From Amphiscolops sp. MND2022 (Eukaryota), in NCBI GenBank assembly GCA_964187785.1, contig OZ076409.1, positions 77,564,001 through 77,628,000 of the forward strand: a DNA stretch of 64,000 nucleotides, written 5' to 3'. The notes under the pieces were generated by a model. That model saw nothing but the letters and a program-made list of their open reading frames with translations, was not told the DNA's origin and did not search any database. Position 1 is the first letter of the stretch; each line of letters opens with the position of its first letter. Of this stretch, positions 8,941 through 62,669 are shown in pieces. A program made the position numbers and the translations under genes.

Positions 8941-9380
8941 ATGTGCATCTAAGTTACAAGCATGAACTTTTACAAATTTTGAACTAATGTTTGAGCTCAT
9001 TTCTGTGAGGCAATGACTCATCAATTTCAAATGAAATTCCTTTCAGTACCTAACAAAATCTTTAACCGAAAATGGTTCAAATCAAACTGATTTTGGAAAA
9101 AATTATTTCAACGATTGTCCACGTGACTTCGTCTCTCTTGTCCGAAAGACATCGTTTTATGAAAACAAAAAAAGCAAACTTTGAGGTTTTAGGAAAGATG
9201 TAGTGAAATTACCTCAACTATTGTTAATAGTTTGAGACAACAAATTTTTTTCAGAAAAACGAAACGTTGTTACAAATGTAACTCAAGGTTCTATCTCATG
9301 TCCTTTCCTCCTCATGTTGAGCGTCGCGGATCTGCAACATTCCAATAATGATAGTAACATCGTCAAGTGCGCCAAAATAT

Positions 9381-9545
9381 TTGGGGCTCGAGCTTTGCGA
9401 GGTGCCCATATGGTGACGTTTTTGGGGCACGAGCTTTGCAAGATGCCCATATGGTGACGTTTTTGGGGCACGAGCGGAGCGAGATGCCCATATGGTGACG
9501 TTTTTGGGGCACGAGTTTTGCGAGATGCCCATATGGTGACGTTTT
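9381..9545. repeat. 41-bp minisatellite, ~4 copies
   Basis: Unit GATGCCCATATGGTGACGTTTTTGGGGCACGAG... starts at 9401, 9442, 9483, 9524. Confidence 0.95.
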
Positions 9546-12500: not shown

Positions 12501-14145
12501 TTAAAAAATCGGCTTTATGGTTTTCTTTGAAAAGAAGTTTTGAAAAAACGCAAACTTTTAGAGTTTTTCATTTTCATCCCCTATTTCTCAGAACCAAGAC
12601 CAGGTACAGGGTCCATGGTTTCGCATAATTTACAAGCATTTCATGGGCTACATTTTTGCTAAAAAATGGCGTCAACATTGTTTTCAGACTTGGTTTTTTG
12701 GGCAAAAAAGGGATGAAAAAAATTGTCGAAAACTTTTTTCTCATTCGTAGCTCATATTTCTCAAAACTGACGAAAGATACAGAAGCCATTCTCCCTCAAG
12801 GCAAACAACAAGGATGTAAGCTATAGTTTTTGTACCAATAAAGTTTCCGTCATAACGTATGACGCGTTCGTTTTTCTGCTAAAAATACTTACTTTTTTTG
12901 AAAATTTTTCTATTTATTTTATACTTGAGCTCCTATATCTCAGAACCGAGAACCAATACGCAGTCCATGGTTTCAGAATTTGTACCAGGTCTCAGTAGGC
13001 TGCGTTTGAAGCAAAAAATGGCGTGGAATTTTTTTCGCTCTGGCTTTCTAGGCAAATAAAGGATGAAGAAGAAATTTGAAAATTTTCATATTTTTTCCTA
13101 ATTTGTAACTGATTTTTCTCAGAACTCAAAAGAGATACGAAAAACCTCTGTCCGAGCTAAAAGTTGCGCATAATCCTCAGCTACAGTTTCGTAGAAAAAA
13201 ATTTTTAAAAAAATCGGCTTTATGGTTTTCTTTGAAAAGAAGTTTTGAAAAAACGCAAACTTTTAGAGTTTTTCACTTTCATCCCCTATTTCTCAGAACC
13301 AAGACCAGGTACAGGGTCCATGGTTTCGCATAATTTACAAGCATTTCATGGGCTACATTTTTGCTAAAAAAATGGCGTCAACATTGTTTTCAGACTTGGT
13401 TTTTTGGGCAAAAAAGGGATGAAAAAAATTGTCGAAAACTTTTTTCTCATTCGTAGCTCATATTTCTCAAAACTGACGAAAGATACAGAAGCCATTCTCC
13501 CTCAAGGCAAACAACAAGGATGTAAGCTATAGTTTTTGTACCAATAAAGTTTCCGTCATAACGTATGACGCGTTCGTTTTTCTGCTGAAAATACTTACTT
13601 TTTTTGAAAAAATTTTCTTAGTTCTTTTATACTTGAGCTTGTATATCTCAAGACTGAGAACGAATACGGTGTCCATGGTTTCGTAATTTGTACGAGGATT
13701 CAGTCTGCTATGTTTAATAGTAAAAATGACGTCGAACTTCTTTTCGCTCTGGTTTTATTGGGCAAATAAATGGATGAAGAAAAATTTCGAAAAAAAAATA
13801 TTTTTTCACCGAATTTTTAACTGATTTTTCTAAGTGAACGTAGATACGAAAACCATTCTCCCTCGCCGAGTTAGGCAAGGATGTAGGCTAGTTCTTGTAC
13901 TATCAAAGTTCCAGTCATCAAGTATGACGCCTACGTTTTTCTGCTAAAATTACAATTTTCGTTTTTCTCAAAATTTTTTTCATCTTTCTTTTCAGTGCTT
14001 TCATCAAAATTTTCTTGATCTGAGACTAGAGATAAGTTCACTAGGTTTTGGAACCTGGGATATGCACAATTTCCAGCACCTTTTGCAGACCATTGAACGT
14101 TTCTGCTCGAGGCCAAGCGCAACATGCCGTTGCGCCTATGTTTTT
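9545..14145. repeat. Satellite-like array, ~175-185-bp diverged monomers with ~1084-bp and ~706-bp higher-order repeats
   Basis: AGGCTAC-type motif recurs about every 175-185 bp; TTTCGTGACATGTG at 9557 and 10641; GATACGAAAAACCTCTGTCCGAGC at ~12428 and ~13134. Confidence 0.85.
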
Positions 14146-17680: not shown

Positions 17681-17847
17681 TAAAATTCAATGAATATATT
17701 TTTTCCAAAGACAATACCTATTTTTAAAGGGTGTCATACTCAAAAAAGTATTTTTCTTCTTTTAAAAAGTATTTATTTTCCTATATTGAAGCATCCTACA
17801 GATACGTCATCATAAGGAAAGTGGACGTCCGTTTGACTACAGGAAAG

Positions 17848-19368
17848 TGTCGCATCCCCCAAGATGCGATGGTTCCGCAGTGCAACTCTAGAAAGGAACA
17901 AGTACTGGAACCTTTTCTATAGACTCACACAAACTCTAATAAACTCATTGTGAACATGTTTTTGTACGTCGTTACTTTCAAAAGGTCATGTAGATATCAT
18001 TTCTATACTTTGCTTACCATGAAGAAACACCCATTATAGTGCTAATGTACCTTGGATTCCTGATTATGAGCCCCTATTTTCATCACAAATCTGATATTTC
18101 ACCGCTTAATCATATGAACTATAAGTTTCTGATGCATCTAAATCAACTCCGTAATAATTTGTGCTTTAACATAGTACTATTATGCGGTACTATGCGGATC
18201 GAGGTGTGACGTATACTCGTCACCATACGTTTTTGGTAATGCCATTATGCGGCATTATACGTTTCAAGGCGTGATGTATATGCGGCACGAGACGTCTTTT
18301 GTAGTAACATTATGCGGCATCCTGCGGATCGAATAGGAATGATCATACGTTATTATGCGGTTTTCGCAGGACTTATTGAACAACACTAGGACGTGCTTCT
18401 AATACTATTTAGAAACCATTTTACTTGTATCTTAACGTTGTTTTAAGATATTTCCAGGGTTCTTTAGTTTCTTCCCATCAGATACTTCCCATGATGTCAT
18501 GTAAATTGTACTATTTTTGTAACATGACCTCATTTGACGTAATTCTATTTTTATGATATTTCCATATGATGACTATAGAAAAAATGAGTGTCATGGTTTT
18601 AAATATTTTTCGCTTTTGTAATAAACTGGAAGGATTATTGAATATTTTGAACCGCATCTTGAGCAGTTGCTTTTTGAACGATTGTAAACTTCTCAATTCT
18701 CGACTACTGTAAACTCTACATCTCTGTTTTATTCCGTGATAATCAAACTAATTCAAATTCTTCCCCAAAAGCCAAAATACTTTTCACTTGAGACGAAATG
18801 GGGAATAGACGTAACAGGAGATCTAGAAGACTAGAAACCCCTTCCCCAGAGCGAAGTATGGAAAGGGCTCAAGATGAAACACCAAACACAGGTAATATTA
18901 CTTTAACTAAAAATAATGTAGTTGTTCAAGAAAATTTAGGTGAAAATAGATTCGGAGAACAATTAGTTGAACCAAGCCAAATCAGCAACGAGATACAAGC
19001 TTGGACCGAAATATTTGAGCAGAAGAACAATGATAGAATAGAGAAAATGAGAGAAGAGATGGACAATAAATTAGAAGCGATTTTAAGGGAGATCAAAACT
19101 AACAAAAGCGTGTCAACAGTCACAAATCCGAGGTCAGAAACTAATGAAATGCAAGATCCTCAACCATCGGGATCCAGAACAATAAGGTCTATAGGAGTTC
19201 ATGCATCCAACAATGAGAACTCAGAACCTGAAGACGAGGATTTTCCTCTTGAGGCTTCGAAAGCAAAAGACTTAAAACAACCCGCAAAACCTATATATGA
19301 GTCAGATGTAGATGTTACAATTCATTCGGACGAAGAATCTGATGCGGAGCCAAACGAGGATTATCACA
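17848..19368 (+). repeat. 5' LTR of family A element
   Basis: TGTCGCATCC...GGATTATCACA; direct repeat of 32614-34134, with four substitutions seen by eye. Confidence 0.98.
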
Positions 19369-20480
19369 TGGTGACAGGAGCCAACCGAAAACTCCATAGA
19401 CAAAGCTCACAAAAATTAAACGACACAATTGGATCCCACGCAGACCATAGCTTGCCAAATTTGACAACACAACCTTTTGACCCAGTGAATCAAATTGCAA
19501 TTGCCATCGAGAAATTGGCGAACAAAAACCCATCACAATCACTATTTCATCCTAAAAATACTCTCACATTCAATGGAAAAAATGAGAAAAATGAAAAATT
19601 CGAATACTTCGAAGACTTGTTCCACACAACACTTCGAATGCAACCAAACCTAACAGAAGACATGAAAATTAACCATTTTCACGCCCATCTCCGAGGTTTG
19701 GCACTAAAAACATTTAAAAACATACAAAGGACACCGACAACAACTTTAGAAGACATTCTCAAAGTTTTCCGACGAAAATATGTAAAACCGGAGTCCAGCG
19801 CATCTGCCAAACACAGATTCAATAGACTCTTCTTCGATCCAGAAAATCAAAAACTCCCGGATTTCTTAGAAGAACTCCAAGAAAGTGCTGAAAAAGCGTT
19901 TGGGGAGAACGCCCACCACATGATAGAGAACTTACTCTACGCGAAAATGCCTCCCCATCTTAAGAAGTCCATCAATCAAGCATATCTTGAAAATGGTACT
20001 TACGACCAAATCGTTAAACACCTTGAACGAGAAATGGAACTCAACGGTCTAGAGGCTGACGAACCTCTCGTCAAAACCCAAATGACGGTTACTAAAAAAG
20101 AACAAACTACCGAAAAAACTAACAAAAAACAAAACGACAAAGCCAAAAAACAAACTCCCAAAACAGTACCGGATAAGACCCTCAAGAATGATCAATGCCG
20201 TTACTGCAAAGAAACAGGACACATGATGACTGATTGTCCTAAATTAGCTAAACGACGCAAACTTGAGGCTGATCCGGATGCTGAAAAATGTCAGACTTGC
20301 AACACACCAGGTCATGATGAAGAAAACTGCTACTTTGGTGCCAATATGGAGAATCGCCCACCGAAATGGAACCTGACCGAAGCACAAAAGAAAATTATAG
20401 AAGAATACAAACAAGCCAAAAAACCAATCAGACCAAAATCAGAACGATCTCAACAAACCTCATCGAAGGATTTAAACTAG
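18798..20480 (+). CDS. gag: Gag (560 aa), starting inside the 5' LTR
   Basis: Open ORF with capsid-like segment (FNGKNEKNEKFEYFEDLF...KINHFHAHLRGLA) and two CCHC knuckles (CRYCKETGHMMTDC, CQTCNTPGHDEENC); the first ~190 codons lie in the LTR. Confidence 0.93.
   Translation: MGNRRNRRSRRLETPSPERSMERAQDETPNTGNITLTKNNVVVQENLGENRFGEQLVEPSQISNEIQAWTEIFEQKNNDRIEKMREEMDNKLEAILREIKTNKSVSTVTNPRSETNEMQDPQPSGSRTIRSIGVHASNNENSEPEDEDFPLEASKAKDLKQPAKPIYESDVDVTIHSDEESDAEPNEDYHMVTGANRKLHRQSSQKLNDTIGSHADHSLPNLTTQPFDPVNQIAIAIEKLANKNPSQSLFHPKNTLTFNGKNEKNEKFEYFEDLFHTTLRMQPNLTEDMKINHFHAHLRGLALKTFKNIQRTPTTTLEDILKVFRRKYVKPESSASAKHRFNRLFFDPENQKLPDFLEELQESAEKAFGENAHHMIENLLYAKMPPHLKKSINQAYLENGTYDQIVKHLEREMELNGLEADEPLVKTQMTVTKKEQTTEKTNKKQNDKAKKQTPKTVPDKTLKNDQCRYCKETGHMMTDCPKLAKRRKLEADPDAEKCQTCNTPGHDEENCYFGANMENRPPKWNLTEAQKKIIEEYKQAKKPIRPKSERSQQTSSKDLN
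19369..19380 (+). promoter_or_regulatory. Primer-binding site, tRNA-Leu-like
   Basis: TGGTGACAGGAG directly after the LTR terminal CA; one mismatch to the TGGTGTCAGGAG tRNA-Leu complement as I recall it. tRNA identity not verified. Confidence 0.7.
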
Positions 20481-23400
20481 AAACGCCACGCCTTTACAAA
20501 AATTCTCCACAAAAACCAAACTCATCTGATGACTGGCAGCATCAGTTGAGCCCAAAACCCACAAAAGCAACACTCGTCCAAAAAGACCTGATAACAGAAA
20601 CTTCTCAACAATCATTGACCGACTACCACACTGAAGACTTATACGAACTCCTCCGTGATTCACCGGACAACTACTTCATCAAACAACAAACCCACCCCGA
20701 AATTGACTCAAAACCCGATATTCACCACAATTCCCCCGTTAAAAATTATGTCACCATAAACACTTCTTGCGATGATAAAAAACAACCTCTACTAAATGAG
20801 GATCTCTCTGAACACCTACAATTCGACAAAGAACGAAATTTGTCATATCTTCCAATTTCAACATGTTTGACACTGAAGCGAAAACGACACATGTACTACA
20901 TACCGATGGATTTCGAAAAACTCACACTTGATGGTCTTATTGATACTGGAGCTCTCACCAGTGCAATCTCCGAACAAGACCTCAACAAAATCAAGCTGCT
21001 GGCAAACGAAGCAATTAAAGAAACCGGTCCTCCACCAAACTTCCAAATTATGGTGGCAAATGGACAAGTAGAAGTCCCCATTGGTACAGTATTACTAGAA
21101 TTCGAAGTCGCAGACTTCATGTTAAAAGAAAACTTCATCATTATGAAAAACCTACCAAACCCCTTAATCGGATTATGTTTCCTTCGAAGGAACAATGCAA
21201 TTTTTGATGTCAATCAAGGCATCTTAACTTTTCCCTACCTCTCGATGCAGCTCAAGCCTGATACACAAACAGCAATACGACAAGCAACACCATTGTTTGC
21301 CGAAAATACCTATACCCTACAACCAGGGGAAACACTTGCCATAGCAAGCAAAATGCCTCATCTGATGGATCATGATGCGACAGGAATTGTCACACCATCA
21401 CAACAATTTGAAAACCACGATAGCATATTTATCACATCATCACTCAGCACAGTCAATAATAATGCTATCGGGTATCAAATCATCAATTTTTCGGAATTGC
21501 CATATACAATAACCCTTGACACCCATCTAGCGGACTTTAAAATTCTCACCCCCGAAAAAATCAAACACATCCAACCCGTAGACCCAGCAGTACTATCTTT
21601 CATGATACAACAAGAGGAAACTACGGAAGTATACATCAACGAACTCCTCAAAGTACCACAACCAAATTCTGAACAAGAATCGTACTGGTTTCCTACCCCG
21701 GAAGACCCAGGCGATCCCGCAACATATACTCCAATACAACAACGTTTATACAACGAACTCCTTGAGTTAAAAGAACTCGAAAAACTGAACCCACATGATA
21801 ATGAAACATCCAGGAAAACATTCCTCTCAAATTTCGACTGGACAGATACAACACTTAGTTCAGAAGAACGACAAGAGATTGAAGAGATTCTGGTCGAATT
21901 CCACGACATTTTCGCCAGACATCGCTTTGATATAGGGATCAACCGCGAGTTCAAAGTGAAATTAACGCCAAATGACGACAGACCAGCTTATAGTCAAAGT
22001 TTACCGACTCCCATTAACCTCAAAGATGACATCACAGTAGAACTTGCGCTCCTACATAAATATGGTATAATCACAACCTTACCATTTTCCAAATATGCAA
22101 GCCCAATTTTTGCACAGCGCAAACCTAATGGGCGCCTTAGGCTCCTTGTAGACCTCCGGAAAATTAATAATCTCATCACTGAAAATTATGCCAACAATAA
22201 CCACCCGGTAAGCACTTTATCTGATGCAGACCAACACATGGCAGGGAAAAAACTTTTCTGCAAATTGGACTGCTCTCAGGCTTACCACTGCCTTCAAATG
22301 GCAGATTACCAATCTATCCAGATGCTTGCTTTTAATTTCGCAAGCAGAACATTTGCTTATCGTCGCCTTGCTCAGGGCCTCAGCCGATCCCTTTCTGCTT
22401 TCTCAAGCTTCATGAGGGAATACCTGGACAGAGCAATCAAAGCTGACCAATGTGCCCAATATGTTGATGACATTGGCATTGCAGTAAACGACACAAAACA
22501 ATTGTACATCAACATCAAAACCGTCTTTGAATGCATCAGAAACGCTGGATTAAAACTTTCCATGTCCAAATGTCATTTTGGAGTTAAACAAGTCGATTTC
22601 CTGGGTCGCACCATCACACCAGATGGAGTTGCCCCTCAGGCCGACAAAGTAAAAGATTTCCTCGCAAAACTCAGATTTCCAAAATCAAAGAAGGCACTAC
22701 AAAGGTATATTGGATTCCTAAACTATTACCGAAACTATATACCACGCCTCTCAGAACGTCTGACCCCGTTTTTTAAACTCCTCAAAGAAACCTCTAAATT
22801 CTACGTACCAACAAATCTAGTAGAAGACTTCACCAACCTCAACAAACTCTTGGAAAATTCTTGTCAGTTAGCGCTAAAACAACCTCTAAAAGACAAACAA
22901 CTTATCGTCATGTCCGATGCAAGCTTCACAGCAGCTGGATATGCCATCATGATAGAAGATGACCCCAACCAGAAATTACAATCCAAACGTAAAACATACG
23001 CACCCATTGCGTTTGGATCAAAATCTTTCAACCCAACACAGACGAAAATGTCGATCTATGCAAAAGAATTTCTTTCCATATATTTTGCATTCGTCGAATT
23101 TGGACACCTCATGTGGGGGAGCACCTTCCCAATCATCGTGTTCACTGACAATCGATCTGTAACCCGGTTTTTTCAAACGAAAATGATTCCTCCAGCGCTT
23201 TGGAATGCATGTGATTATGTATTACAATACAATTTTGTAATCGCCCATGTAGCTGGATCGATGAACACAGCCGCCGATTTTTTATCTAGAACTGAAGTTA
23301 ACCCAACCGGGAAGCTCGAAATGACAATTCGCAACGATATTCACACAAAAGCAATTGAAGTGAATATACAATCAACTGGAATTGTCGAAGAAGAACAAAT

Positions 23401-25351
23401 TTACATCCTTCCTGATGAAGAAATTGATGAAAATCAACTTTGGGAAGAAAAACAAAACACTCGCAATCAAGCACAAAACGAAACTCACAATGACCCAGAG
23501 AACGACGTCTCTGAATTACAGCAATTTCACAAACCTACATCCGGATTGATCTCCTGCTCCTCTGGACACTTCAAGGACAATGCGAGGATACGCCTTGAAC
23601 AGAACAATGACATAGTCCTTCGAAACCTGAGAGCCAAAATAGAAGGCGAACCGTTCGATGAAAATGAATTAGCTTCCGATTTCAGATATCAACACTACTT
23701 ACAAAACATAACACGAATCGAGATTAAACACGAAGTTCTCACACGAAAATACTATACAGATACAGGAATGATCTCGCATTACCAAATCCTCTTACCAATC
23801 CAACTTCTTGAAGAACTACTTCAAGCCCTGCATGGCCATAACTCAAACCATCCAGGAATCACTAAGATGATTCAAGAAGCACGCCAAAAATATTACTACC
23901 CATGTATGGCTAAATACATCAAAAAATGGGTCAGTAATTGTCAGGTTTGCATTCAAACAAAACGCATTAATAATGACCTCCTCAGAACTGAACTCCTAAA
24001 CTGCCCTGAATGGGATCTTGGTCCGGAAGACATCCTGCAAATGGATATTTTGCCAAACCTCCCCCCAAGTAGAGGTTATGATCATATCATCACAGCAATA
24101 GATGTCTTCTCAAGATACTTGTTTGCCTATCCTGTGACCCACATTACTGCTACGGCAGTATCAAAAGTCATCATGGATATATTATGCAAACACACTTATC
24201 TTCCAACAACTATAATAACGGATCTGGGTACTCAATTCAATGCACAAATAACCCACGAAATTGCTGCAGTACTCGGAATTGAACTCAAACATGCTACAAT
24301 GAAACATGCGCAAACAATAGGTCTTCTGGAAAGAACTCATGCCTCAGTTAAAACACACCTAAAAGCCGCGACAGGCGAATTTAGGAACAACTGGCATAAA
24401 TATCTTCCTCTGGCAGTCCTAAATCACAATACTACATACCATGCATCACTCGGGTGTGAACCCTCACGAGTTTTTCATGGACGCATACCACACAATATCC
24501 TAGACTATAAACTTGGATATAATCCAAATCCAAGATATCAACCGCAAACCGACATAGCAGACGAAACACAAAAGCGCATGAGAATACTTCTAGACCAAAC
24601 TAAGAAGAACATCATGCAATCTTACCTTAAATACAAAGCCTACTATGATCGCAAAGCAAAGGCAGCACCATTAGAAACGACGGACTATTGTTACATTCTG
24701 AACCCAAAAGCAGACACACAAGCGACGAAAATCCCGTTCCGAGAATTTAGATGGTGCGGACCATATAAAGTTGAAAAAATCCTCCCAAACATAAACTACA
24801 TAGTTAGAAGACTTGGAACTAACAAAACACAACTCCTTCATAGGATTCGTTTGCGCAAATTTACTCCGCAAGCGCCCTTAGCAGACATTTTTGTTCGTGA
24901 AACTGACTGGCAAAAAGATGATCAAATGCCAATAACAAATGATGACTTATAAGCACAATCGTGGAACACGAATTTTGGATCTAGCCCGTTTGACGATGAT
25001 CCAGTAGAAAATTCACCAAATAATGATGATGCTGAATATACTCCGATTCAAATACCAGACGAAAACCGCCCTCCCTCCCCTAGTTCTTCAAAAAATAGTG
25101 GGGGGAGCCCAGTGGACCAGACCACTGAACCTGAAAAAGAAACGAATAATGAAAATTTACAAGAGACCCATGATGATGAAGTAGAAAACCCACAAAAAGA
25201 CAGAAATATAACACCCGAAATTGATGCCCAAAATACCCCAGAAATCCCTGAAAATATCCCATCGCAAGAAGAACCCATAAATACCCGTGGTGAGAAATAC
25301 AACTTACGTCCTAACCCCAACCCAAATTACTCTGACACATACAGATATTAA
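20366..25351 (+). CDS. pol: Pol polyprotein (protease, RT, RNase H, integrase) with one in-frame TAA at 24950-24952
   Basis: LIDTGA protease; YASPIF/LRLLVDLRKIN/YVDD RT; SDAS..E..FTDNRS RNase H; HGHNSNHPG..CQVC zinc finger, QMD..TDLG..LERT DDE core, WCGPYKV. ORF 25112-25351 continues in the same frame after the stop. Confidence 0.96.
20471..20477 (+). promoter_or_regulatory. Predicted -1 ribosomal frameshift slippery site T_TTA_AAC
   Basis: X_XXY_YYZ heptamer correctly phased in gag, immediately before the gag TAG; pol is in the -1 frame. Confidence 0.8.
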
Positions 25352-25578
25352 AAACAATACCTACTTCCAGACTCAAACTATCACTAAGAAAACAATTGCA
25401 GAGGAAATTTTCCTTAATACTACCCTCCCATCATGTGTAACTTAACACACGCAAGTCTCTCCTTCACTCTGAAGAACGACTTCATTTCTCGCCCAAATAA
25501 ATACATGGCGGAAAATTTACAAATCTATCATCAGCTCAAAACAAACATAAATAAACAGTTTGCAAACAGATACAACAA

Positions 25579-28500
25579 TTAGTTTTTCTTGCTTTTCAAT
25601 GTCTTGCACCGAACATCTGTTGAACCTCCTTCTTGCTCACCACTGGAGCAACGGTTGAGGGAAACATTAACCCGACTTAGAGTAGGGTCTGGCGACGGGG
25701 TACTGTTGACACTACTATGTCGGCTAACACTAGGAGTGGTGGTGGTAGAGCTAACAGCAGGCTTCTCCAGCCTCAAAACGGCCTTACGATATCCCGCTTC
25801 CAGATTGCCGACTAGCGCGGATCTTCGGGAACTGCTCCCTTTAGAAAAATTCCAGATGGAAAACTTCTTATCAGACAGCAAATCAGTCCCTCGTCCCAAC
25901 AAACGGAAGGCACGACTAATAGCCTTTGAATCTTTAAACAGACTAGAGACATGAGGCACAGTTTGGTAGGAAATTTGCAGGCTAACAACACAAGAATTAA
26001 AAGAGCTCTTATCGGATTCAAGTGTAGGCATTGGTACATCGAATACAGGTGGCACTTCCACCGTCGGTGACAAGCACAAACAAGAATATCTAAACAGTAA
26101 CAGAAGTTCCGGCCTCGACTGAATTTCGTAATGAGTAGCTATAAAGGATACCCAATCTTCATACTCAGGAATGTTTTCTGTTCTCATCTTTGAAACGAAT
26201 GACCGGTACTGACTAATCACTCTCACCTTCTCAGTAGAAGAAAGCATCCCAGCAGCCACAAAGTGGGAAGATAGCTTCTCAATAGCTGTGGCGTAAACCT
26301 CTTCAGGACTCTCAAAGACTACAGGGGAATCAAATGCGGATAAACCCCTGAGCAAATTAGATTTGACGATCTCGTGGGTCAATAACTGCTTACAAAAGGA
26401 TTTGCAGAAGCTAATTGACTGCGCAATAAATTTACTGGGTCGGGATAACTTGCTGGTGAGAACCAAACGATGATAATCTTCATTGAGCACAAATTCATCG
26501 TTGCTTTTAAAAGGCAAACTAGTAGTATCCAATTCCAGTCCGAGATAAGTATCCCAATCTGAGACGCTACCCAGAATACGATCAGGCAGGATACTCTGCA
26601 GCTGTGAGTATGTAAACACGGCAAATTGGTTGAATAACCTGAAGCCACTGTCTATCTGTTTTTGGGTCTCTGGGAAGGCTGAATTATCTGAAACAACATG
26701 AGATATTCAAAAAACGAGTGATTAAATACAATAAAATGATCTTCATGACGAGTCAAACCCTACATCAAGAAGAAATAAGTCAGATCAGACCATGACTCAT
26801 GACTGAGCTTATAGTTCGTATTATTCATTGTTATTCTCGCATCAAACAATTGTTACTGCTGGTAACACTGAATACAAGTATTAGACGTCATCCTACGGTT
26901 CGAGGTGAAGCGTATATACGTCACTCCACAGAATTGCTGAGTACATTATACGTCATTATGCGGTTCGAGGTGTGACGACTATGCGTCACTATGCGGAATT
27001 GCATAGTGGACTATGCGTCATTATGCGGTTCGAGGTCTGACGACTATGCGTCACTATGCGAAATTGCATAGTGGACTATGCGTCATTATGCGGAATTGCA
27101 AATTGGACTATACGTCACTATGCGGAATTGCAAATTGGTCTATACGTCACTATGCGGAATCGCACGTTAAGCTGATGCGTCTCTTAACAATCAATACAGC
27201 GATGTCGTTGACGTGGAAAATAATTGAATAATGCGTTGTAGTTTACACAAGCCAGAATAAATCCAACAACAGATTAATAGGATATAACAATGAAAATACA
27301 AAATGTGGTACGATCTAGCTGTGCAAATACACTAACTACATGTTAAAAGGGAGTCTTAAAGGGAATTTATCAAGACATTTTGATCCACAACCGAAATTAT
27401 GGTTCCTAACCCGCCACTAGACAAAATAAACAGTAGTCTGTATGAAAGGAAAATGACTAACAGTGATCAATAACACATCTGATGATGAATAGTCTTGCCA
27501 AGAACGCTGAGTCCAATCGGAAACACTCATCAAGTGTGTTGGGCTAGAAAAACCTCACAGTTATAACACTATCTCTTGGATAACATGACAAACTGATGGA
27601 CCCTTGTAGTCACAATCTGATAAAATAATTAAACAATAATAACCTCTTTCATGTGGAAACGGTAGGCGGGTAACCTTCCAATCTGGGTTAGGTGTTCGGT
27701 CACTTGTTCCCAATTATTCGACAAGATCTCTATGAGTTTGGAAGCTTCATCAAGTGTGTATTCCAATGAAAGGACGCACTGAAAAGGGTGGCAAAGTTTT
27801 AACGAAGATCATGTAAAAGTTGACTATAAAAGTGGTATATACTACCTTATGCAATAGAGCCAGATTTTGAAGCCAATCCCGATCCAAGGCAGTGCGAAGC
27901 TTCATAAGTAGATAATCCAAAATGCTTCTAAAGTCATGCCTCTCAATAATCTTGACTGTGGGGCTAACCAAACTGCGCTCGAATTCAGTTGGTCCATATG
28001 TCTTCACAATTGAAGCAGTTTTGGCACCAGGCAAAGAAGTAATTAAACATTCATTGAGATTGTCGCTAAATCCTGTGAGTGCAACGCAAGTTGGTACCGT
28101 TTCAAATAAACTCAGGAATGAAGCAACGAGATTGAAGATTTTCCGTGGAAGAAGCATTCCTCTTGGGGCACCTCCGATACAGACGCGGTGTAGAACATTC
28201 TCAGACCAAAAATAGAGAATGACATATGTTGCTGTAGCTGTATGTTGAACCGCGAATGAATAATAACCAGTTGTAGAAATGGCCTTGATACAGTAATCCA
28301 TCAATTCCCGGAACATGTAGACGAGAATCCCCTGTAAAAGAAATATACAATGATACAATGTTCAATTACTTTACTTCAACGGAGACAAAAAATAGTAATT
28401 GCAAGATGAAAGGAAAACAATTGCCAAACTTAATAAGGTAAAGAACCTACACGAAATATTACTTACGAAAAGCCGTTGGGGGCTCCAGTTTTGGCTAGAA

Positions 28501-29925
28501 ATCCGGCTGCTGGAGGTCAACCTCACAAGTTCCTCATATACCCCAGTCAGTAGAGAGACACTTCCCCCATGTCTTAGGCCAAATTCCAAGATGCTGATTT
28601 GGGAGAACAGCTTCTCCGTAGGGCTCGTAGTTGCACTGAAGTCTGGAATGGACTCTTGCCCAACGAGAGGTCTCAGCGAATCGAGTTGAGGAGGAATTGG
28701 GTAGGAATCCCTCGCTTTCTTCTTGGCGTCTTGTAGCGATTTCCTTTTCGTCTTTGTCAAACAGAGGCATGCCAGGGACCTCCATTCGGATCCTATGTTC
28801 TCGAACTAAATGAGAATCAGTGCGGTAGTGTGAGATAAGTTCCAAGCTCCCGCGGCTCATGAGTGACAACTCCACACGACATACTCTACACCACCATTTG
28901 TATGGTGACTTGTCTTTATCCAGAGGCCCTGTCGCTGAAAATTTGAGTACGGGGTGTCGCTTGAACATACTTCCCGTTAGGGAATATTTAGGTCTTCGGC
29001 GCTTTCCTCGCACTGTTGGGGGAGATTGCCCTGCCTCTTGTTGAATTATTCCAGTACTAACACTCGCCACCATGTTTTCCTGACTAGAAGTAGTTATAAG
29101 TGTAGTGGGTGTAATGTCATCAACCACGGCAACGGACATCGGTTGGTCTAGATTACCTTCTTCTCCAGTGATGAAGGACTGTGGGATTTTGCCCAAAAAA
29201 TTAGCCAAGAAAAGAACCTCCTGTCTGGTGATACTGATAGTGGATGAGCTGGATCCAACAACTGGCTCGTTTCCTGCGGTATCTGGTCTGGTAATGCTCC
29301 CCCATGAATCTTGTTGACTCATTCCTCCTTCCTGGACAGGATTACTGGGAATCAAAGGATTGGGTAATGAACCATCAGTCCCAGTGACGAACTGACTAAA
29401 CCTCGGCGAAAGAATACGGGATGTTCCAGGGGCGTCTAAATCAGTAAAAAACTCTTGAGCAAAACTATGGCAATCCTCATCCATGGGTTTCGAAGTAGGA
29501 GCTATCTTAAGTTGAGTTGTATCAGGCTCTAGTAACGAACTTTCCTCATTACGGAGGGTCTCCTCACGAATTATTGGAGGGTCTTCGGTCAACGCTGGCT
29601 CACTGGAGTTTTCTTTTGTAGTTCCTTCGTCAATTTGCAAGACAGGTGTGCTGGGCGATTCTTGTGGAAGAGTTCGATTCAAAGTTCGTGGTGCGGCAAC
29701 TTGTAACGCAGTATAATTTTTGTCCGGGGAACTGATAGGAGTAGCTTGAGTTGTTCCTTGTTCAACTGAAACAAGCGTTTTAAACAAGCGTTTGAAAATG
29801 AAGTAAACTTTGCAAGTGAAACCCGTTTCAATGCTTCTAGAAACCGGACGCGGGGACCGGAAGTTAAAAAAGGAACGGAAATCACTTAGAAAACTGAAAA
29901 GGAAGCGCTTCAAAAGTTTGAACAT
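25579..29925 (-). CDS. Predicted spliced antisense gene, ~1090-aa zinc-finger / hAT-transposase-like protein (exons 29925-28467, 28331-27846, 27778-27644, 27543-27462, 26687-25579; one frameshift near 28740)
   Basis: Long minus-strand ORFs (463, 129, 202, 346 aa) join in frame through GT-AG introns 28466-28332, 27845-27779, 27643-27544 and 27461-26688. Contains WWCRVCRVELSLMSRGSLELISHYRTDSH. The two small exons and the start codon are the least certain parts. Confidence 0.7.
26945..27165. repeat. Tandem array with TATGCGTCA(C/T)TATGCGG core
   Basis: Repeated CTATGCGTCACTATGCGG-type units, lying in the predicted largest intron of the antisense gene. Confidence 0.9.
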
Positions 29926-30550
29926 GGCTTTGAAAATTATCTAAGCCTTTTCAATTTTGCAGGCCTGGCCAGTCTCGCAAAAATCACAAATTCAAAACAA
30001 ATTTATCAATCTAAAACCAAAAGAAATGAGTTGGACTAACGGGAAGAAAGTTCAGGCAGTTCTTCAGGGTTCCAAAAATCATCACGTTGTAATGGATTGT
30101 AGTCCTTTCGTGATCTGCGTTTTTCGCTCTGATCGGCTTCAGAATTCGCATCCATGATGAGGCAGTCGTACCAAAACAATTGGGAACTCCCACGAGAATT
30201 ATAAAGGCAAAATAAACCGTAATGAGGAGAATACTGTAGTAAACAATGATATAATCAATCTGGGAAGAAACCCGGGAAGAGAAAGTTACTGAAAAGCTGA
30301 CTCTGCAAAGACTAAAATACTTTACTGAAACTGAGACTTAAATGTGACTCTTACGATAAAAATGATCAAGCAGTAAGGCGTGGCGTAATATAGCAAACAA
30401 AGGCAAAAAAGCAAATGAGACAGATTTGCGCAAATGTGCAAAACAAATACTATGATCTGATTGGCTAATTAAATGTCAATCACGTCTGCCAGCGTGATTG
30501 ATTGACTCATTATACAACACCAACGCATAGATGTTATTTTGGTTGAAAGT

Positions 30551-30795
30551 ATACGGCAGTATGCGGATTGCAGATACAAAGTATACGGCAGTATGCGGAT
30601 TGTGAAAAAAGAATATGCGGCAGTATGCGGGTCGAGTGAAGACGTGTATGCGGCAGTATGCGGATTGTGAAAGAAGAATATGCGGCAGTATGCGAATCGA
30701 ATGAAGACGTGTATGCGGCAGTATGCGGACTGTGAAAGAAGAGTATGCAGCAGCATGCGGATTGTGAAAGAAGAGTATGCGGCAATATGCGGTTC
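30551..30795. repeat. ~30-bp tandem array with TATGCGGCAGTATGCGG core, about 8 units
   Basis: Seen directly; lies between the divergent antisense and sense accessory ORFs. Confidence 0.92.
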
Positions 30796-31627
30796 TCGCT
30801 GCACAACTTTAATAGGATGAATTAATGCAGTTCGTGATTAGAAACGAACAGATGAAGAAGTATTACATAATACCTTGATGAAAATTAAAACATTCTCAAA
30901 AATAAACACGTGTGTTATTGTTGATGCCTAGTATACATGATACCTAGTCCTATGCAGAATTTAGCTAATTTAGTGGATTCTGAACTAATGGGGTCTTTTA
31001 GAAGTTTAGGGACAAAAACAATCGAAGTCATTGAACATCATCTGTTAAATCACCAATCCATTCACCCTTTTAAAATGCGGGACTAGATTTATTACATGTT
31101 TTTTACTTAAAATTAGTGTTTGAGCAAAATATGTAGTTAAACTAAAGGTGGAATATGTTTCATAACTTTTTTTCATCATTTCATAAAATTGGTCATGTAG
31201 AATTAAATAAATTTCCCCCCCTAAACTTTTCAATGGAAGCCGCTATGGAAGTATTTGACTACTTTGATGTCCCGTTGAGTTTTGTTTGTATATCATTTAA
31301 TTGCCTAGAAGTTGATGTATTTTCTAGTGATAAATGATGAATCGTTTAAGTGTTAAACAAAACACCTTTTATGGAAATTGTTTACGAATCATCATAAGTG
31401 AGTCTCATGACTTGATGCCTAATAAAACCCTTATAAAGGAAAAGGAGGAATTCAAAAAGCGTGACTCTCAAATTTTCCGCGGGTTTTGTCAAAAGCAAAA
31501 GGAGGAAGATCATCAATCACCATATGGTCTTTAACAATTCAAAACTCAGTCGCCTTTTGAAATAATTGATAATTTGTTACCTGAAGAAACTCACCCATCG
31601 ATTTCAATCATAACATTTTCTGACGAA

Positions 31628-32719
31628 ATGGACAAGTTACAATTTAACTTTGAAGAAGACAGCCTTTATTCACCTCTGTCCCCCGATGTGATCGATATAT
31701 CCAGTGGTTCCGAAGATGCTTTTTCGATCGCCCCTGGTAACACCCAGCAACTAGAGGAAAAATTCAGAGTAAATCCGGCAGGAAGTAACTTGATGGCTGC
31801 ATTTGTCGGGTCATCTCTGGCGACCTTGTACCCCAACTCAACTGTGCCCCAAGGGAATCATGAAACTACAGTGGCAGGAGGCTCACAAATAGAAAAGAAC
31901 CTTATGGAACTGATGAATGACCCCCGGGATGAACCCACAGATTCCCCGGCATCATTCGTCGACAGTGAGTTTGAAGAAAGTAATCTGTTTCCCTGGATGG
32001 ACAACAGAGGCTCGACCCAGGACACAAATCACTATGGTCGGCCATGCGTTAGAGTAATGCCAGTTCTAAGGGAAAACCAGGACGAGAGTGGAGTTCTGCC
32101 GACTCCAATGTCCGAACAAACACCCAATGGAGGCCCCAATCCATCGGTTATGCAGAACACACTAACAAACGACACCATGGAATATGAACCGCATGATGTC
32201 GGAGCTCGGTTGCAAATTCCGGTCTCGAGGAACATGCAGGGGTTCAGCCTGTCCCCAATGTTGTTCCCGATGCAGATAACGGACACAGCTCAAGAAATGC
32301 ACCGAACGCCATTGATTATGCAGCAAACAGCGCAGATTAGTTTTCCCTTCAATACAGTTCACAGTTCTAATGTGTTACTAATTCCGGCCAGTGAGAGACA
32401 GGGCATCCGACTTCTGCCGACAGTTATGCCGAATGTGGCGGGGTATTGTGAACTATGCGGCAAATGTTTTGACCAAGTTGCATTGGAGACCCTCGGCCAA
32501 TACTTGGTTGCCACTGAGTTTGAAGGTGAGACTGTTAAAGAAAGAAAAATAAGGTCAAAAGCCTTTATCCACGGGTTCGAGGCAGCCTTGTTCCTTTTTA
32601 AAAAATGCGGGACTGTCGCATCCCCCAAGATGCGATGGTTCCGCAGTGCAACTCTAGAAAGGAACAAGTACTGGAACCTTTTCTATAGACTCACACAAAC
32701 TCTAATAAACTCATTGTGA
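31628..32719 (+). CDS. Accessory sense ORF of unknown function, overlapping the start of the 3' LTR
   Basis: Open frame from 31574, first ATG at 31628; acidic Ser/Pro-rich N-terminus, then YCELCGKCFD and a predicted helical segment; TATAAA at ~31432 upstream; no obvious signal peptide or transmembrane run. Confidence 0.65.
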   Translation: MDKLQFNFEEDSLYSPLSPDVIDISSGSEDAFSIAPGNTQQLEEKFRVNPAGSNLMAAFVGSSLATLYPNSTVPQGNHETTVAGGSQIEKNLMELMNDPRDEPTDSPASFVDSEFEESNLFPWMDNRGSTQDTNHYGRPCVRVMPVLRENQDESGVLPTPMSEQTPNGGPNPSVMQNTLTNDTMEYEPHDVGARLQIPVSRNMQGFSLSPMLFPMQITDTAQEMHRTPLIMQQTAQISFPFNTVHSSNVLLIPASERQGIRLLPTVMPNVAGYCELCGKCFDQVALETLGQYLVATEFEGETVKERKIRSKAFIHGFEAALFLFKKCGTVASPKMRWFRSATLERNKYWNLFYRLTQTLINSL

Positions 32720-34134
32720 ACATGTTTTTGTACGTCGTTACTTTCAAAAGGTCATGTAGATATCATTTCTATACTTTGCTTACCATGAAGAAACACCCAT
32801 TATAGTGCTAATGTACCTTGGATTCCTGATTATGAGCCCCTATTTTCATCACAAGTCTGATATTTCACCGCTTAATCATATGAACTATAAGTTTCTGATG
32901 CATCTAAATCAACTCCGTAATAATTTGTGCTTTAACATAGTACTATTATGCGGTACTATGCGGATCGAGGTGTGACGTATACTCGTCACCATACGTTTTT
33001 GGTAATGCCATTATGCGGCATTATACGTTTCAAGGCGTGATGTATATGCGGCACGAGACGTCTTTTGTAGTAACATTATGCGGCATCCTGCGGATCGAAT
33101 AGGAATGATCATACGTTATTATGCGGTTTTCGCAGGACTTATTGAACAACACTAGGACGTGCTTCTAATACTATTTAGAAACCATTTTACTTGTATCTTA
33201 ACGTTGTTTTAAGATATTTCCAGGGTTCTTTAGTTTCTTCCCATCAGATACTTCCCATGATGTCATGTAAATTGTACTATTTTTGTAACATGACCTCATT
33301 TGACGTAATTCTATTTTTATGATTTTTCCATATGATGACTATAGAAAAAATGAGTGTCATGGTTTTAAATATTTTTCGCTTTTGTAATAAACTGGAAGGA
33401 TTATTGAATATTTTGAACCGCATCTTGAGCAGTTGCTTTTTGAACGATTGTAAACTTCTCAATTCTCGACTACTGTAAACTCTACATCTCTGTTTTATTC
33501 CGTGATAATCAAACTAATTCAAATTCTTCCCCAAAAGCCAAAATACTTTTCACTTGAGACGAAATGGGGAATAGACGTAACAGGAGATCTAGAAGACTAG
33601 AAACCCCTTCCCCAGAGCGAAGTATGGAAAGGGCTCAAGATGAAACACCAAACACAGGTAATATTACTTTAACTAAAAATAATGTAGTTGTTCAAGAAAA
33701 TTTAGGTGAAAATAGATTCGGAGAACAATTAGTTGAACCAAGCCAAATCAGCAACGAGATACAAGCTTGGACCGAAATATTTGAGCAGAAGAACAATGAT
33801 AGAATAGAGAAAATGAGAGAAGAGATGGACAATAAATTAGAAGCGATTTTAAGGGAGATCAAAACTAACAAAAGCGTGTCAACAGTCACAAATCCGAGGT
33901 CAGAAACTAATGAAATGCAAGATCCTCAACCATCGGGATCCAGAACAATAAGGTCTATAGGAGTTCATGCATCCAACAATGAGAACTCAGAAACTGAAGA
34001 CGAGGATTTTCCTCTTAAGGCTTCGAAAGCAAAAGACTTAAAACAACCCGCAAAACCTATATATGAGTCAGATGTAGATGTTACAATTCATTCGGACGAA
34101 GAATCTGATGCGGAGCCAAACGAGGATTATCACA
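32614..34134 (+). repeat. 3' LTR of family A element
   Basis: Direct repeat of 17848-19368, followed by the GAAAG target duplication. Confidence 0.98.
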
Positions 34135-34157
34135 GAAAGATACTAAGAACGCTGTGA
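33564..34157 (+). pseudogene. Copy of the gag N-terminus in the 3' LTR, reading out into flanking DNA
   Basis: Matches gag residues 1-190 except two substitutions, then ends RKILRTL* in the flank. Confidence 0.85.
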
Positions 34158-35057
34158 TTGGTCAAAAATTGATTGGACTATGCGTCAAGTAGACTATAGC
34201 GCTGACTAGTTTACCTTGCGCGTACTGTAATTCATTCAACGTGCGTTTTGTCGTTGTTATAAACTTTACACAATAGCACAGCTAGTAGAGATCCTGACTC
34301 TGAATATACATTTTCATATCAAACGGTGTATAAATCCAAATACAAAATACTATAAGCTTCAAGCGACCGTAGAGTTTGTTTATAGCAATACGTTTTGTTG
34401 TAGCCGGGGTGACCTCGGGTCCGGTCCAATTAGCTCTAAACTGGTAGAGTTCCTGGAGGAGGGACTGCGGTAACGTTATTAGGGTTACCTGAAAATATTT
34501 ACCGTCGCAAGTGGCAGTTTGCGACACTCCCCTGGGAATGAGAATGAAGGACACAGCCTTCATTCCATCTCAGAAAGCGTTTCTTCTTGCCATTCGTACC
34601 CGATATGTTTCTCCCTCTATGTGGGTACTTTGTAAGTACCCGATAGTGATTTCTTCTTTAACCGTGACAAAAGATCTTCCGCACACAACGTAACTTCTGT
34701 GATGAACTTCATAGGGTTGTCCGAAAATCCCACCAGTACCGATGGCATCCCCAGTAGTATGTGAACTCTGCACCCACGGGTTAACTTCATCCTCAGTCCA
34801 TTCTGCTTCCACGTAGTCAAGAGAAAGCCCACTGGTGGTTTACCTACTAACCACTCAATCAGACTGCTAGTAGCTTCAGATGCCTCATCTAACTAATTCA
34901 GTGGAACCTCTTCTCCGAATGTCCAACCACGTGGTTCAAGTCGGCTCGAGACAGACTCTTGTTTTCTCTTCTTGCTTTTGTGCGTAAAAGTTCCTTCAGA
35001 CAATGCTGTTATCGTAACACACCTCGTCTTGCGTCTTGTTGACAACATACCCCTTTA

Positions 35058-37994
35058 CAGTAGCGTTCTAAAATATCGCAACTCCAATGCTCAAAAATGC
35101 CATTTTCAAATCAAAAAATCTTGAAAACTACTAAGATTTCAAAAAATTGTCAGTCGGGAAAGTTTCTCAGATTTTACAACTTTTCAAAAATCAGAAAAAA
35201 ATGTACTCTATATTGTGTCCATGAACACTGCAACATATGTATCAAGATAGGCAATAGCAATATTGTATTTAGAAAATTGATGAATCCTATTTGAAATCGA
35301 AAAAAGTATTTCAATCAAATTATACCTGCATCCTCAGGAGATTTGAGGGCATATGATTGACTGAACAGTTTCAAAAATAATTTTTCAGCTTTGTTAAAAT
35401 CAAGAAAAAGTGCAAATTTGATATAAACTTTAAATTTCATAAAAAATTACAATTTCTAACATTTGTAATTTTTGTTGCAGACAATTCAAACAAACATTTT
35501 GGTAAACTAGATGTCACAGTCCGCTCCCGGACTGGGTTGTGGGTGTCTGAGATTCAGTTTTGGACGAGGCCATGGCTGCACCGCGAGGTTTGCGAAAACT
35601 TATTTCAACTACTAAAACTAACAGATAAAGTGTGACAAAAACAAGCCACGTCTAGATCACGCAGATTTCTAGACAATATTGAGTACTAAGGATTGAACAA
35701 ATTTGAAAATGATTTTTCACGCATTTCTGGTAAAACGTTTCAGCCACATCAAAATAGTAACATTCGCCACCTGAAAACTAAATTAAAACACGTTTTAAAA
35801 AAAAAGATAGCATAGGCTAATCTAAATGAAAACACATCCAAAATCATCTCCAAAGAGAACATCAATCAGATCTAAAATAGAAAATACATTGAGATGGCAC
35901 GCCGAAGAAATTAGGCCTTTTCTAAGAAAGGCAGCTTAATTACTCTTTCAACAGCAATTAGTGTGGTTTAGGACGACAATATTGCGTCAAGTAAACAAAT
36001 CGGTGGAAGAAATAAGAATGCATGTATATTTGTCGTCAGTAAGACGCAGACAAAATTGAATGTATTCCAATTGACGTCACTGCCTCGCCTATACGTACCA
36101 GAAAATCATTCCGATTATCCGCCTATATTAATAGCCTTACTAGAAATCATTCCAATTTACCGCCAATGTGAAGTCACTACTCCGGCAGCTAGCTAGAAAA
36201 TCATTTCTAAAATACTCGTCAGCATTGCGTCAAACTAGTCAAAATCTGAGTTCTGCTAAGAAAACTCGTCAACATGACATTGACAAGTTTATGAAATTAG
36301 ATGAATCAGGTGAATTTGCTCTATTAAGCTAAGGGAAATACGCTAGTACAACGTCAAGGATCCCTCGAAATTAGCTGTTTTAACTTTTCCAGGATGGTAA
36401 ATTGAACACCCAACTTAACGGAATTAATATGAGGAAAACGTTTGTTCTGCTCAGTTTAACCAAAAGGAATAAGGGGTAGCAAATTGCGTCCATTTCTCGT
36501 CGACAAAAATGTTATTCATCTGAAAATACAACAGGAAACGAATCCTAATCGAAATTTTTTGGTATCCGCTAAAGACAAGAGTCCAATTTATGTTCTTGTT
36601 GCTAAACAAGTAATTAAATTTATTACACGAAGTTTTTTTACACACCGATAGTGCTGTGAAATTTGGATTTGCTATTTGTTAATTTATACCAACTCATTTT
36701 AGTATGGCATTTAGTGTTATTTTATGAATATGATCATCAACACTGAAGTACATTAATATCATAACACTACATTTGAAGTTTCTTGTTATTGTTGACGTTA
36801 TTTTGTAAACTTGTCGCGCTTGGCGCGTCAGGACTAAATTGTTGGTAATGAATGTATTCAATATTGCGATTTGAATCTTATTCCCAACGCAAAGAGTGAG
36901 TCCAAATCCATTTAAAATATTGTCTTAGCATCGCTCAAGCAATCGTAACTTGGAAATTAGTCATATTTTCCTCAAATTGAAATTCACAATCAGGTATTAG
37001 TTGTTCACGTCAGCGTCATCTCAGCGTCAATTTCCCACGAACCAAAACAGTAAAACAGGGAATCATTTCCGGTTTGATAGACCGAAGTAATATGTACTTC
37101 CTGTTTGGGGGGAAACCAAAGGACGCCGGGATGAAATGATATGTTCGTGATAAGTGACTAATATCAAAAATTGTAGTCGTGTCTCAAAATTTGACGAAAT
37201 GTCGACCCGAATTTGGGATCTTAATGATTTTTTCATCGATAAAACTGGAAATGACTAATTGTTTGAGGAAAATTTGGGAAATAGTCGTGATCAAATGATG
37301 CTGGGAGGGTATAAATACGGTAGAATTTGATGATTGAAGGACTCAGTCTTCTCCAATTGTGAAAACCAGTTATTCCATAACTTGTCTATTTTCTCAATTC
37401 TCAATCTCAACTTTTGGAAACACTCTGAAAATAAATTGAATTCTTCCGAATCAATTCTCTCTACATCAAAATGTCTAACACGAGAAGCCAGAAAAGAAGA
37501 AACAACCAGCAAGAGGCTGTTGAAAATGTAAGTGAAGGTTTTGTTTCACCAGTTGTAGTGGAAGACTCTTGTCCTTTGAACCAAGAAGTAAGCGTTGCAG
37601 GCCCGTCTAATCCAAAATCTCCAAGAATCGAAGGTAGCTTCTTAGAAAGTTTAAGAGCCTCTCTAAAAGAAGAGATCACGTCCGAGATCAAGAATCGCCT
37701 TGTAGAGTCCCAAAGAGAAATGCTGACTTCTTAAACCTGAAACAAGAGAAAATGTTAAGGAAAACGTCGAAGAAGAAACGGAGAATGTAACTAGGAGTTT
37801 CTACACCCCTACAAAACCGGTTAGAATTAACTCTACCCAAAACAACGATACGAATGTAAGTCGTAACACTAGATAAAATTCTAAGGAACTTTCCTAGCTG
37901 ACAATTTTTCTGCATTTGAGACAGTTCGCGAGTTTTTTAGTTTTGAATTTTGTCATTGTGAGTAATGGAGTTGCAATATTTTAGAACGCTACTG
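35058..37994. mobile_element. Tc1/mariner-type MITE (~575 bp) interrupted by a solo LTR
   Basis: Terminal inverted repeats CAGTAGCGTTCTAAAATATCGCAACTCCA / TGGAGTTGCAATATTTTAGAACGCTACTG, with TA on both sides (35056-35057, 37995-37996). Confidence 0.9.
35512..37868 (+). mobile_element. Solo LTR (family B, 2357 bp) containing a frameshifted gag-leader ORF from 37471
   Basis: TGTCACA...CGTAACA termini; CTAGA target duplication (35507-35511, 37869-37873); TATAAATA at 37310; 3' part homologous to 61147-61956, where a PBS follows. Confidence 0.9.
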
Positions 37995-38981: not shown

Positions 38982-39685
38982 TGTAACGTCAAAGAGTTGG
39001 CACCAAAACCTCGAAGAAAGATCAAAAAGTGTGCGTCTCAGAATGGCCGTCCTGGCAGGTCCCTGGAGTCAGAAGAGAGAAGTAAGAAGACCGCAAAAAG
39101 AGACCCCACCCGAAAAACCCGTATAGTCAGACAACCGAAAACGTCCAGTAGCTGAAAGAAGGCAAAGCCCAATGTTGTGCAATCTGATGCAGAAATAACA
39201 AGAGTCTGACAGAAAGATGAAGAATATGCAATTCCTGTACGAATGTTACCCGAGACTCACAACTCTTTGAAAACAGTCCCGAATACCTTTTCAGTGCTAT
39301 TCTGTAGTGTTTTTATAGATTTTCAAGTGCTGGATAATGTTGGACCTTCCAGTTCGCAATTTTAGATCTTATTCATAGAATAGAATGTACTTCGGCTAAG
39401 CAGCTGTTATTGGACATCGGAGGTATGTACGAGGCTGCAGGAACGTCAGGAACCTTGGACTTTGTTTTCACAAGCTTGTGGGGCGTTTCCGGACTTTGAG
39501 AGTGCCGGCACGTGGCCTCGGAGCTCTAATTTGAGGAGCCTCCTTTGACGTATGGAAAGTCCCCCTGGGAGAACATTTTGTGACAAAAACTGATCTCTAG
39601 GGCTGTAGTAAGACAACGGTCTCATGTTTAAGCACCCTAGGCTTTATCCCACTTCTATGATGTACGCTGCTAGGTGGACGTTACA
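38982..39685 (+). repeat. 5' LTR of family D element (704 bp)
   Basis: TGTAACGTC...GACGTTACA inverted termini; 39082-39685 is repeated at 54555-55160. Confidence 0.9.
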
Positions 39686-39701
39686 TCTAGAATAGTTTCT
39701 A

Positions 39702-54554: not shown

Positions 54555-55160
54555 GTAAGAAGACCGCAAAAAGAGGCCCCACCCCGAAAAACACCGAAAA
54601 ACTCGTATAGTCAGACACCCGAAAACGTCCAGAAGCTGAAACAAGGCAAAACCCAATGTTGTGCCATCTGATGCAGAAATAACAAGAGTCTGGCAGAAAG
54701 ATGCAATTCCTGTACGAATGTTACCCGAGACTCAGAACTTGTTAAAAACAGTCCCGAATACCTTTTCAGTGCTATTCTGTAGTGTTTTTATAAATTTTCA
54801 GGTGCTTGATAATGTTGGACCTTCCATGTCACAACTTCAGATCTTCATCATAGAATAGAATGTACTTCGGCTATGCAGCTGTTGTTGGACATCGGAGGTA
54901 TGTACGAGGCTGCAGGAACGTCAGGAACCTTATAATTTGCTTTCACAAGCTTTTGGGGCGTTTCCGGACTTTGAGAGTGCCGGCACGTGGCCTCGGAGCT
55001 CTAATTTGTGGAGCCTCCTTTGACGTATGGAAAATCCCCCTGGGAGAACATTTTGTGACAAAAACTGATCTCTAGGGCTGTAGTAAGACAACGGTCTCCT
55101 GTTTAAGCACCCTAGGCATTATCCCACTTCTATAATGTACGCTGCTAGGTGGGCGTTACA
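54555..55160 (+). repeat. 3' LTR of family D element, lacking the first ~100 bp
   Basis: Aligns by eye to 39082-39685 with scattered substitutions and small indels; ends GTTACA. Confidence 0.9.
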
Positions 55161-55471
55161 TGTCCGCTATCAACGTTCTGGCTAATTGGGTATGTTTTGT
55201 CAAAATTTCAAAATCCCATTTCGCGGTGTTTGTAGCTGAGAAATTCGTTAGTAGTCTCGCAATAAGAAAACTAGAAAAGACATTGGCTACAATTATGACA
55301 TATTCACACCCACCAATATCGGTGGTAAACTTGGCAAAAGTTCAGTTTGCGATGCAACCTGTGGACGCAAGTCCCAACCCAGTAAACTCAGCATATGACT
55401 TTATATTTTGTGACTTGTATTTTGTGAGGATAGTAACAGAAGAACAGGTTTCATCAAAGTGCCATACTTCA

Positions 55472-62664: not shown

Positions 62665-62669
<5 letters not shown>

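Follow-up and report, generated by a model that had tools for sequence, protein, structure and literature searches.

Plant Gypsy retrotransposons of the Retand/Tat type carry antisense TRP28 (PF04195) open reading frames (ORFs) together with tandem repeats; their origin and function are described as open, and no similarity outside transposable elements is reported (PMC11963269). Plant mobile domains are also carried by Gypsy elements (PMC5418596). Among DNA transposons, the VANC proteins of VANDAL bind tandem targets and remove silencing (PMC5735166), and TnpA of Spm is reported to be transposase-derived (bioRxiv 10.64898/2026.08.24.746577). Transposase domestication is already known for hosts and for DNA transposons themselves. 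Here we analysed 64,000 nucleotides of Amphiscolops sp. MND2022 (contig OZ076409.1, positions 77,564,001 to 77,628,000; hereafter the window), in which a 16.3-kb Ty3/Gypsy element (17848-34134) contains a gene on the minus strand. With moderate confidence, we favor the interpretation that this conserved, probably spliced antisense gene of the clade encodes what is predicted to be a full-length hAT-type transposase, probably dead and now likely a sequence-specific DNA-binding regulator of the element, whose expression it most probably promotes against host silencing. We found no report of a hAT-derived gene in a long terminal repeat (LTR) element in the literature; the search left subscription papers, Repbase and supplements mostly uncovered and a prior annotation is possible.

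A conserved antisense gene with a predicted hAT-like fold

The alignment of group I copies, one of four groups described below, predicts six exons (E0 to E5, Table 1) and about 1,075 codons. In these copies the donors are GT in 19/19 for three introns and in 19/20 and 16/18 for the others, and the acceptors are AG in 17/19, 18/19, 17/19, 20/20 and 18/18. Codon positions 1-2 of E3 and E4 match the window copy at 0.71-0.93 and third positions at 0.40-0.42, while the introns of group I have an identity of 0.35. In most of 50 aligned rows, with identities from 12 to 98%, the 162 codons of E2 are free of indels. In group IV, E2 and E3 form one open frame and E4 and E5 another (detailed for L116), which lends independent support to the E2/E3 and E4/E5 junctions. 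Judging from this conservation, the gene is likely spliced. The dN/dS ratios were 0.06-0.13 for E2 (15 of 373 pairs, those with dS 0.2-2), 0.09-0.14 for E5 (18/362 pairs) and 0.03-0.04 for integrase, most other pairs being saturated at synonymous sites. By this measure the antisense gene is under purifying selection.

An earlier sequence-only reading had placed the gene at 25579..28930. The predicted start is at 30155 and not at 28930, and that reading had missed the small exons at 27778-27644 and 27543-27462 and the 5' exon at 30155-30041. A start at 29925 was ruled out by the conserved acceptor at 29766 and the conserved upstream start. The motifs it had quoted are all present on the minus strand, including YYSFAVQHTATATYVILYFW at 28265-28206 and the FCKQLL...RYSCLCL stretch in the last exon. 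As a conserved pattern, the zinc ligands, the E2 frame, the splice ends and the variability of third positions indicate that these motifs are not due to chance. The gene, from the sequence comparisons, is real, selected and clade-wide. The frame of the window copy is broken near 28737 in E1, but 21/22 of the closest copies have one continuous frame; this break and the stop in the pol of the window copy could each be a mutation or an assembly error.

Other features of the gene structure were also noted. Group IV is without two of the introns (L112-L121 versus L031-L111), and the large intron with the repeats comes last in group I but follows E2 in group II. From these alignments, intron gain or loss has occurred within a retroelement. 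Tandem internal duplications are found in L100:941-6689, with E3-E5 three times, and in L118:5576-7791, with the finger and E2 twice. Short non-coding blocks in the first antisense intron (~29850-29975) are strongly conserved among group I copies and are candidate promoter or packaging elements; some of them resemble ETS-type sites.

The evidence for a hAT-like fold comes from structure prediction. E2 was predicted to adopt the RNase H-like catalytic fold that is expected of a hAT transposase, and the E5 model contains a helical region aligned to Hermes 365-609, Hermes being the sole pointer among the 50 matches listed. The Hermes structural ranges 153-265 and 365-609 are colinear with the gene, and the gap between them is about the size of the intervening coding sequence. 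Searches of Atlas with the finger returned BED/Spin-doc rows at 0.82-0.84, which we treat as a lead only, and no zf-BED Pfam match was found; the Atlas matches for E5 and the finger are hAT-associated families. The predicted domain order is a zinc finger, a helical domain, an RNase H-like core, a helical insertion and a hAT C-terminal region. The finger itself had been recognized, but with a spacing of x15 where the actual motif is WWCRVC-x16-H-x5-H (28896-28810), and its four ligands are intact in 57-58/59 copies. The GKRRRPK patch does precede it, at 29007-28987, just outside the 25579..28930 interval.

Neither a second VIA run nor Foldseek, in which the model of E5 was compared with PDB and with viral libraries, gave anything clear. 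Pfam scans of the window ORFs, 73 aligned E5 relatives and 37 + 17 further proteins gave no hAT or BED match, and PDB sequence searches gave no match. Comparison by hhalign with two home-made hAT profiles was not significant: the local score for E2 was 19.75 versus a shuffled maximum of 17.7, and that for E5 was 16.4 versus maxima of 19.9 (shuffled) and 21.3 (reversed). The best independent E-values (i-E) were 0.11-0.19 when three antisense profiles were searched by hmmsearch against 49 hAT loci and 120 hAT proteins, and a metagenome scan yielded 80 pattern matches with none confirmed. PF14291 had no match in the genome, where its control was silent too. The hAT ancestry proposed earlier is partly supported, by predicted fold and domain order, with no significant hAT match from sequence-profile and Pfam searches. 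Several hAT families of the genome (L071-L076, L078) retain canonical catalytic motifs in long open frames, and none of them is detectably similar to the antisense gene. None of the 49 hAT loci examined resembles it.

D180, D248 and E572 form the catalytic triad of Hermes. All three are needed by the enzyme (PMC2533014). We placed them using the VIA ranges, the Hermes sequence and one non-significant hidden Markov model alignment (i-E 0.19), so that the register is inferred and involves no residue-level superposition. D180 falls on E2 column 29 and D248 on column 87, which read Q (28247-28245) and G (28073-28071) in the window copy. Column 29 is Q in 21/21 group I rows, E in 9/9 group III rows and mixed in the others, and D in 0/53 rows. 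Column 87 is G in 43/53 and D in 4/53. There is no family-wide acidic column in E5 after the CLCL motif (54 rows); group I conserves LESD there, and group II a D. The single near-invariant acid of E2, D133 (98%), starts a later helix outside the core strands. No column pair with a conserved C-x2-H follows the second aspartate; H at column 114 occurs in 5/14 group II, 5/9 group III and 0/21 group I rows. A Cys in group III, at column 109, is out of register and was rejected as the Cys of CxxH. Of 64 inverted pairs, the 25 longest include none that flanks the gene as terminal inverted repeats. In these registers the DDE triad of hAT transposases was not found. Because no triad, CxxH or terminal repeats were found, the antisense protein is not a member of the hAT transposases proper. 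With no conserved acid at the inferred catalytic positions, transposase activity in any group appears very unlikely. The protein is probably a catalytically dead derivative of a hAT transposase.

Distribution, divergence and exchange

A search of the assembly (GCA_964187785.1; 1.07 Gb, eukaryotic) with E2 listed 5,133 candidates at first look, and 150 of them were scored; these figures are not copy numbers. Sixty loci were hand-picked from four ranked lists to span identities and frame lengths, and the sample is therefore non-random. The context is Gypsy at 60/60 loci. In every copy sampled the gene occupies the interval from pol to the 3' LTR, with a convergent pol beside it at 19/20, 19/20 and 20/20 loci in three sets. 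One locus (L045) is without pol and retains ORF3 and the 3' LTR. Another (L090) is interrupted by an element that we take from its motifs to be BEL/Pao-like, with E3, E5, pol and gag beyond the insertion. Pairs spaced 14-15 kb (C9, C12, C13) are head-to-tail element arrays whose LTRs are apparently shared, as also at L046 and L082.

The loci fall into four groups (I-IV). The median identities of group I to groups II, III and IV are 84, 64 and 57% for integrase, 38, 18 and 17% for E2, 37, 19 and 18% for E5, and 58, 31 and 25% for the finger region, the best-conserved antisense part. The same four clades appear in the integrase tree and in a quick tree of E5 (both unrooted, built on the 35 rows in which all three regions were present). 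As the sample holds no gene-less Gypsy outgroup, the capture point and the direction of intron change are unrooted. Public collections contain 325 relatives at E <=0.001 with identity down to 21%. For some of these the best match in this genome has only 29-49% identity, and other species therefore probably carry the family too.

Within groups I-III, the four-fold-site distance is <0.35 for integrase but >0.55 for E5 in 32/189 within-group pairs, reaching 0.02 versus 0.61 for L039/L050, while the converse (E5 <0.2 with integrase >0.35) occurs in 0/189. Because integrase is often far closer than the antisense gene within groups, we infer that the antisense cassette swaps between pol backbones by recombination.

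Carrier element, repeat arrays and ORF3

The carrier has the TG...CA LTRs, target duplication, gag and pol order of protease, reverse transcriptase, RNase H and integrase (PR-RT-RH-IN) that are characteristic of Ty3/Gypsy (Table 1). Its interval from pol to the 3' LTR holds the minus-strand gene and the divergent plus-strand ORF3. The start of gag lies inside the LTR (18792-19368) and is repeated in the 3' LTR (33558-34134), as in all groups examined.

Table 1 Features of the carrier element and its antisense gene in the window.
Feature	Position	Strand	Remarks
Target-site duplication GAAAG	17843..17847	+	second copy 34135-34139
5' LTR	17848..19368	+	1521 bp, TG...CA; overlaps gag by its first ~190 codons; TATGCGG cluster
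gag	18792..20480	+	CCHC knuckle; Ty3 capsid match weak
pol	20321..25351	+	PR-RT-RH-IN; in-frame stop 24950-24952, frame runs on to 25351
Exon E5	25579..26687	-	helical region, then ~60 more ordered residues and Ser-rich basic tail
TATGCGG tandem array	26957..27157	+	32-33 bp units; last intron of antisense gene
Exon E4	27462..27543	-	27 codons
Exon E3	27644..27778	-	45 codons
Exon E2	27846..28331	-	predicted RNase H-like fold
Exon E1	28467..29765	-	long low-complexity N-terminus, basic patch, zinc finger, helical region
Zinc finger C-x2-C-x16-H-x5-H	28810..28896	-	BED-like by Atlas lead
Basic patch GKRRRPK	28987..29007	-	possible nuclear localisation signal
Exon E0	30041..30155	-	predicted start codon at 30155; start, donor and acceptor kept in 16-18/18 group I copies
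TATGCGG tandem array	30560..30792	+	between antisense gene start and ORF3
ORF3	31535..32719	+	divergent from antisense gene; C-terminal CxxC; overruns into 3' LTR
3' LTR	32614..34134	+	4 differences from 5' LTR; TATGCGG cluster 32947-33126

The heptamer TATGCGG occurs 34 times in the window versus 3.1 by chance (0/100 shuffles). Thirty of the 34 are inside the element, all on the same strand, in clusters in both LTRs, the last antisense intron and the intergenic region. Arrays of 4-30 copies are present in 9/9 group I-II elements; in group II, which has ACAGCAT as well (25-39 copies), the array sits in another intron.

ORF3 encodes a low-complexity protein with a C-terminal cysteine cluster and has a counterpart, likewise divergent from the antisense gene, in all four groups; it gave no match in Pfam. 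A hydrophobic-plus-serine/acidic motif near its N-terminus (~31688-31708), resembling the SUMO-interaction type, is found in 16/21 elements and in all groups. Just beyond the 3' LTR, 34540-34686 on the minus strand weakly matches the ORF3 C-terminus (39%, E 6e-5).

Elsewhere in the window, direct repeats at 39082-39686 and 54555-55161 (91% identical, 15.5 kb apart) enclose a degenerate Gypsy-like pol (46067-46736); neither the repeat pair nor this pol matched the antisense profiles. Tandem arrays at 9380-14145 and 60326-63998 have 41-bp and ~354-bp units and three ~1.65-kb units that are 97-98% identical, with an inverted relative at 37065-37868.

Origin, function and comparison with known systems

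We propose that a hAT element or a hAT-derived host gene may have inserted a single time, in inverted orientation, into the 3' part of a Gypsy ancestor. Introns on the strand opposite the packaged RNA survive reverse transcription, and those of the antisense gene would have outlasted it in this way. The gene would be transcribed from a bidirectional region common to ORF3, the basic patch would direct nuclear import, and the finger would bind the element's own repeated sites, in groups I-II the TATGCGG arrays of the LTR, intron and promoter region. ORF3 might in turn engage SUMO-linked chromatin machinery. The relatively high conservation of the finger region, the clustering of TATGCGG and the SUMO-type motif of ORF3 are circumstantial evidence in favor of this scheme. 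For the earlier proposal of a class II transposase repurposed as a regulator or anti-silencing factor of a class I element, the dead hAT origin is probable, and the regulatory function is plausible. A more specific version, in which the dead transposase and a SUMO-interacting ORF3 of an ancient Gypsy clade form an exchangeable counter-silencing cassette, swapped between pol backbones as specificity types, is put forward tentatively; the transposase would recognise repeats of the element while its partner diverts SUMO-dependent silencing. One observation counts against the interpretation we favor: TATGCGG arrays are absent (0-1 copies) in 12/12 group III-IV elements, and the heptamer was rejected as a family-wide target.

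Transposases natively bind element ends and target DNA, and the dead protein could instead act at integration, binding cDNA ends or target chromatin and guiding or protecting the intasome. The TATGCGG clusters in both LTRs and the conservation of the whole fold beyond the finger fit such a role, but the arrays are internal as well, and cassette swapping between integrase backbones (32/189 pairs, none converse) opposes a tight partnership with integrase, making this role unlikely. We give similarly little credence to a self-limiting repressor, or a factor for competitor exclusion, by which the family would damp itself or elements related to it. Repression is common among domesticated hAT proteins, SUMO-interaction motifs can bring in silencing factors or draw them away, and the same anatomy is compatible with such a role. 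However, the family is very abundant, and both its fast divergence between groups (antisense 15-38% versus integrase 53-84%) and its cassette exchange look like host conflict.

As for origin, a donor outside hAT, from one of the other DDE families that have a helical insertion (MULE/IS256, P element), is quite improbable given that E5 points to Hermes alone among the matches listed, that the Atlas matches for E5 and the finger are hAT-associated, and that the two Hermes ranges are colinear with a gap of fitting size. An orphan RNase H-like protein without transposase ancestry, for which the Hermes matches would reflect common folds, is very improbable indeed, as the two exons folded one by one and the two Atlas queries all lead to hAT, the family proposed beforehand, in the correct order.

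If the interpretation of a hAT-derived regulator is true, this is domestication by a different class of parasite, kept across four deep clades of an abundant family, and it explains where an antisense accessory gene of a retrotransposon came from, which is left open for the plant Retand ORFs. The locus shows a route for an intron-bearing gene to ride in a retroelement. Counter-silencing by an LTR element also becomes directly testable, since natural recombinants are available along with candidates for the DNA-binding domain and for its sites.

The antisense protein resembles Hermes/hAT (PDB 8edg, 8sjd, 2bw3) and hAT-derived, FAM200/GTF2IRD2-like proteins in predicted domain order, colinear ranges and Atlas neighbours. 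Unlike Hermes/hAT, it lacks D/D/E and CxxH, its beta1-beta2 loop is ~5 residues shorter, and it is longer at both ends, by ~290 low-complexity residues at the N-terminus and by an extension at the C-terminus; its gene, with no detected terminal inverted repeats, travels as retrotransposon cargo. Like VANC and TnpA, it would be a fast-evolving accessory factor encoded by a transposable element and with tandem-repeat targets. Those proteins belong to DNA transposons, act on their own superfamily and have experimental functions, whereas the present protein would be of class II origin and work for a class I element, in a putative function. Retand/Tat elements likewise have a conserved antisense ORF that separates pol from the 3' LTR, tandem repeats specific to the family close by and a proposed regulatory role. 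PF04195 (TRP28) had no match in Pfam scans of the window ORFs and relatives. Introns are not mentioned in PMC11963269; the cargo here is a whole transposase-like fold with five predicted introns.
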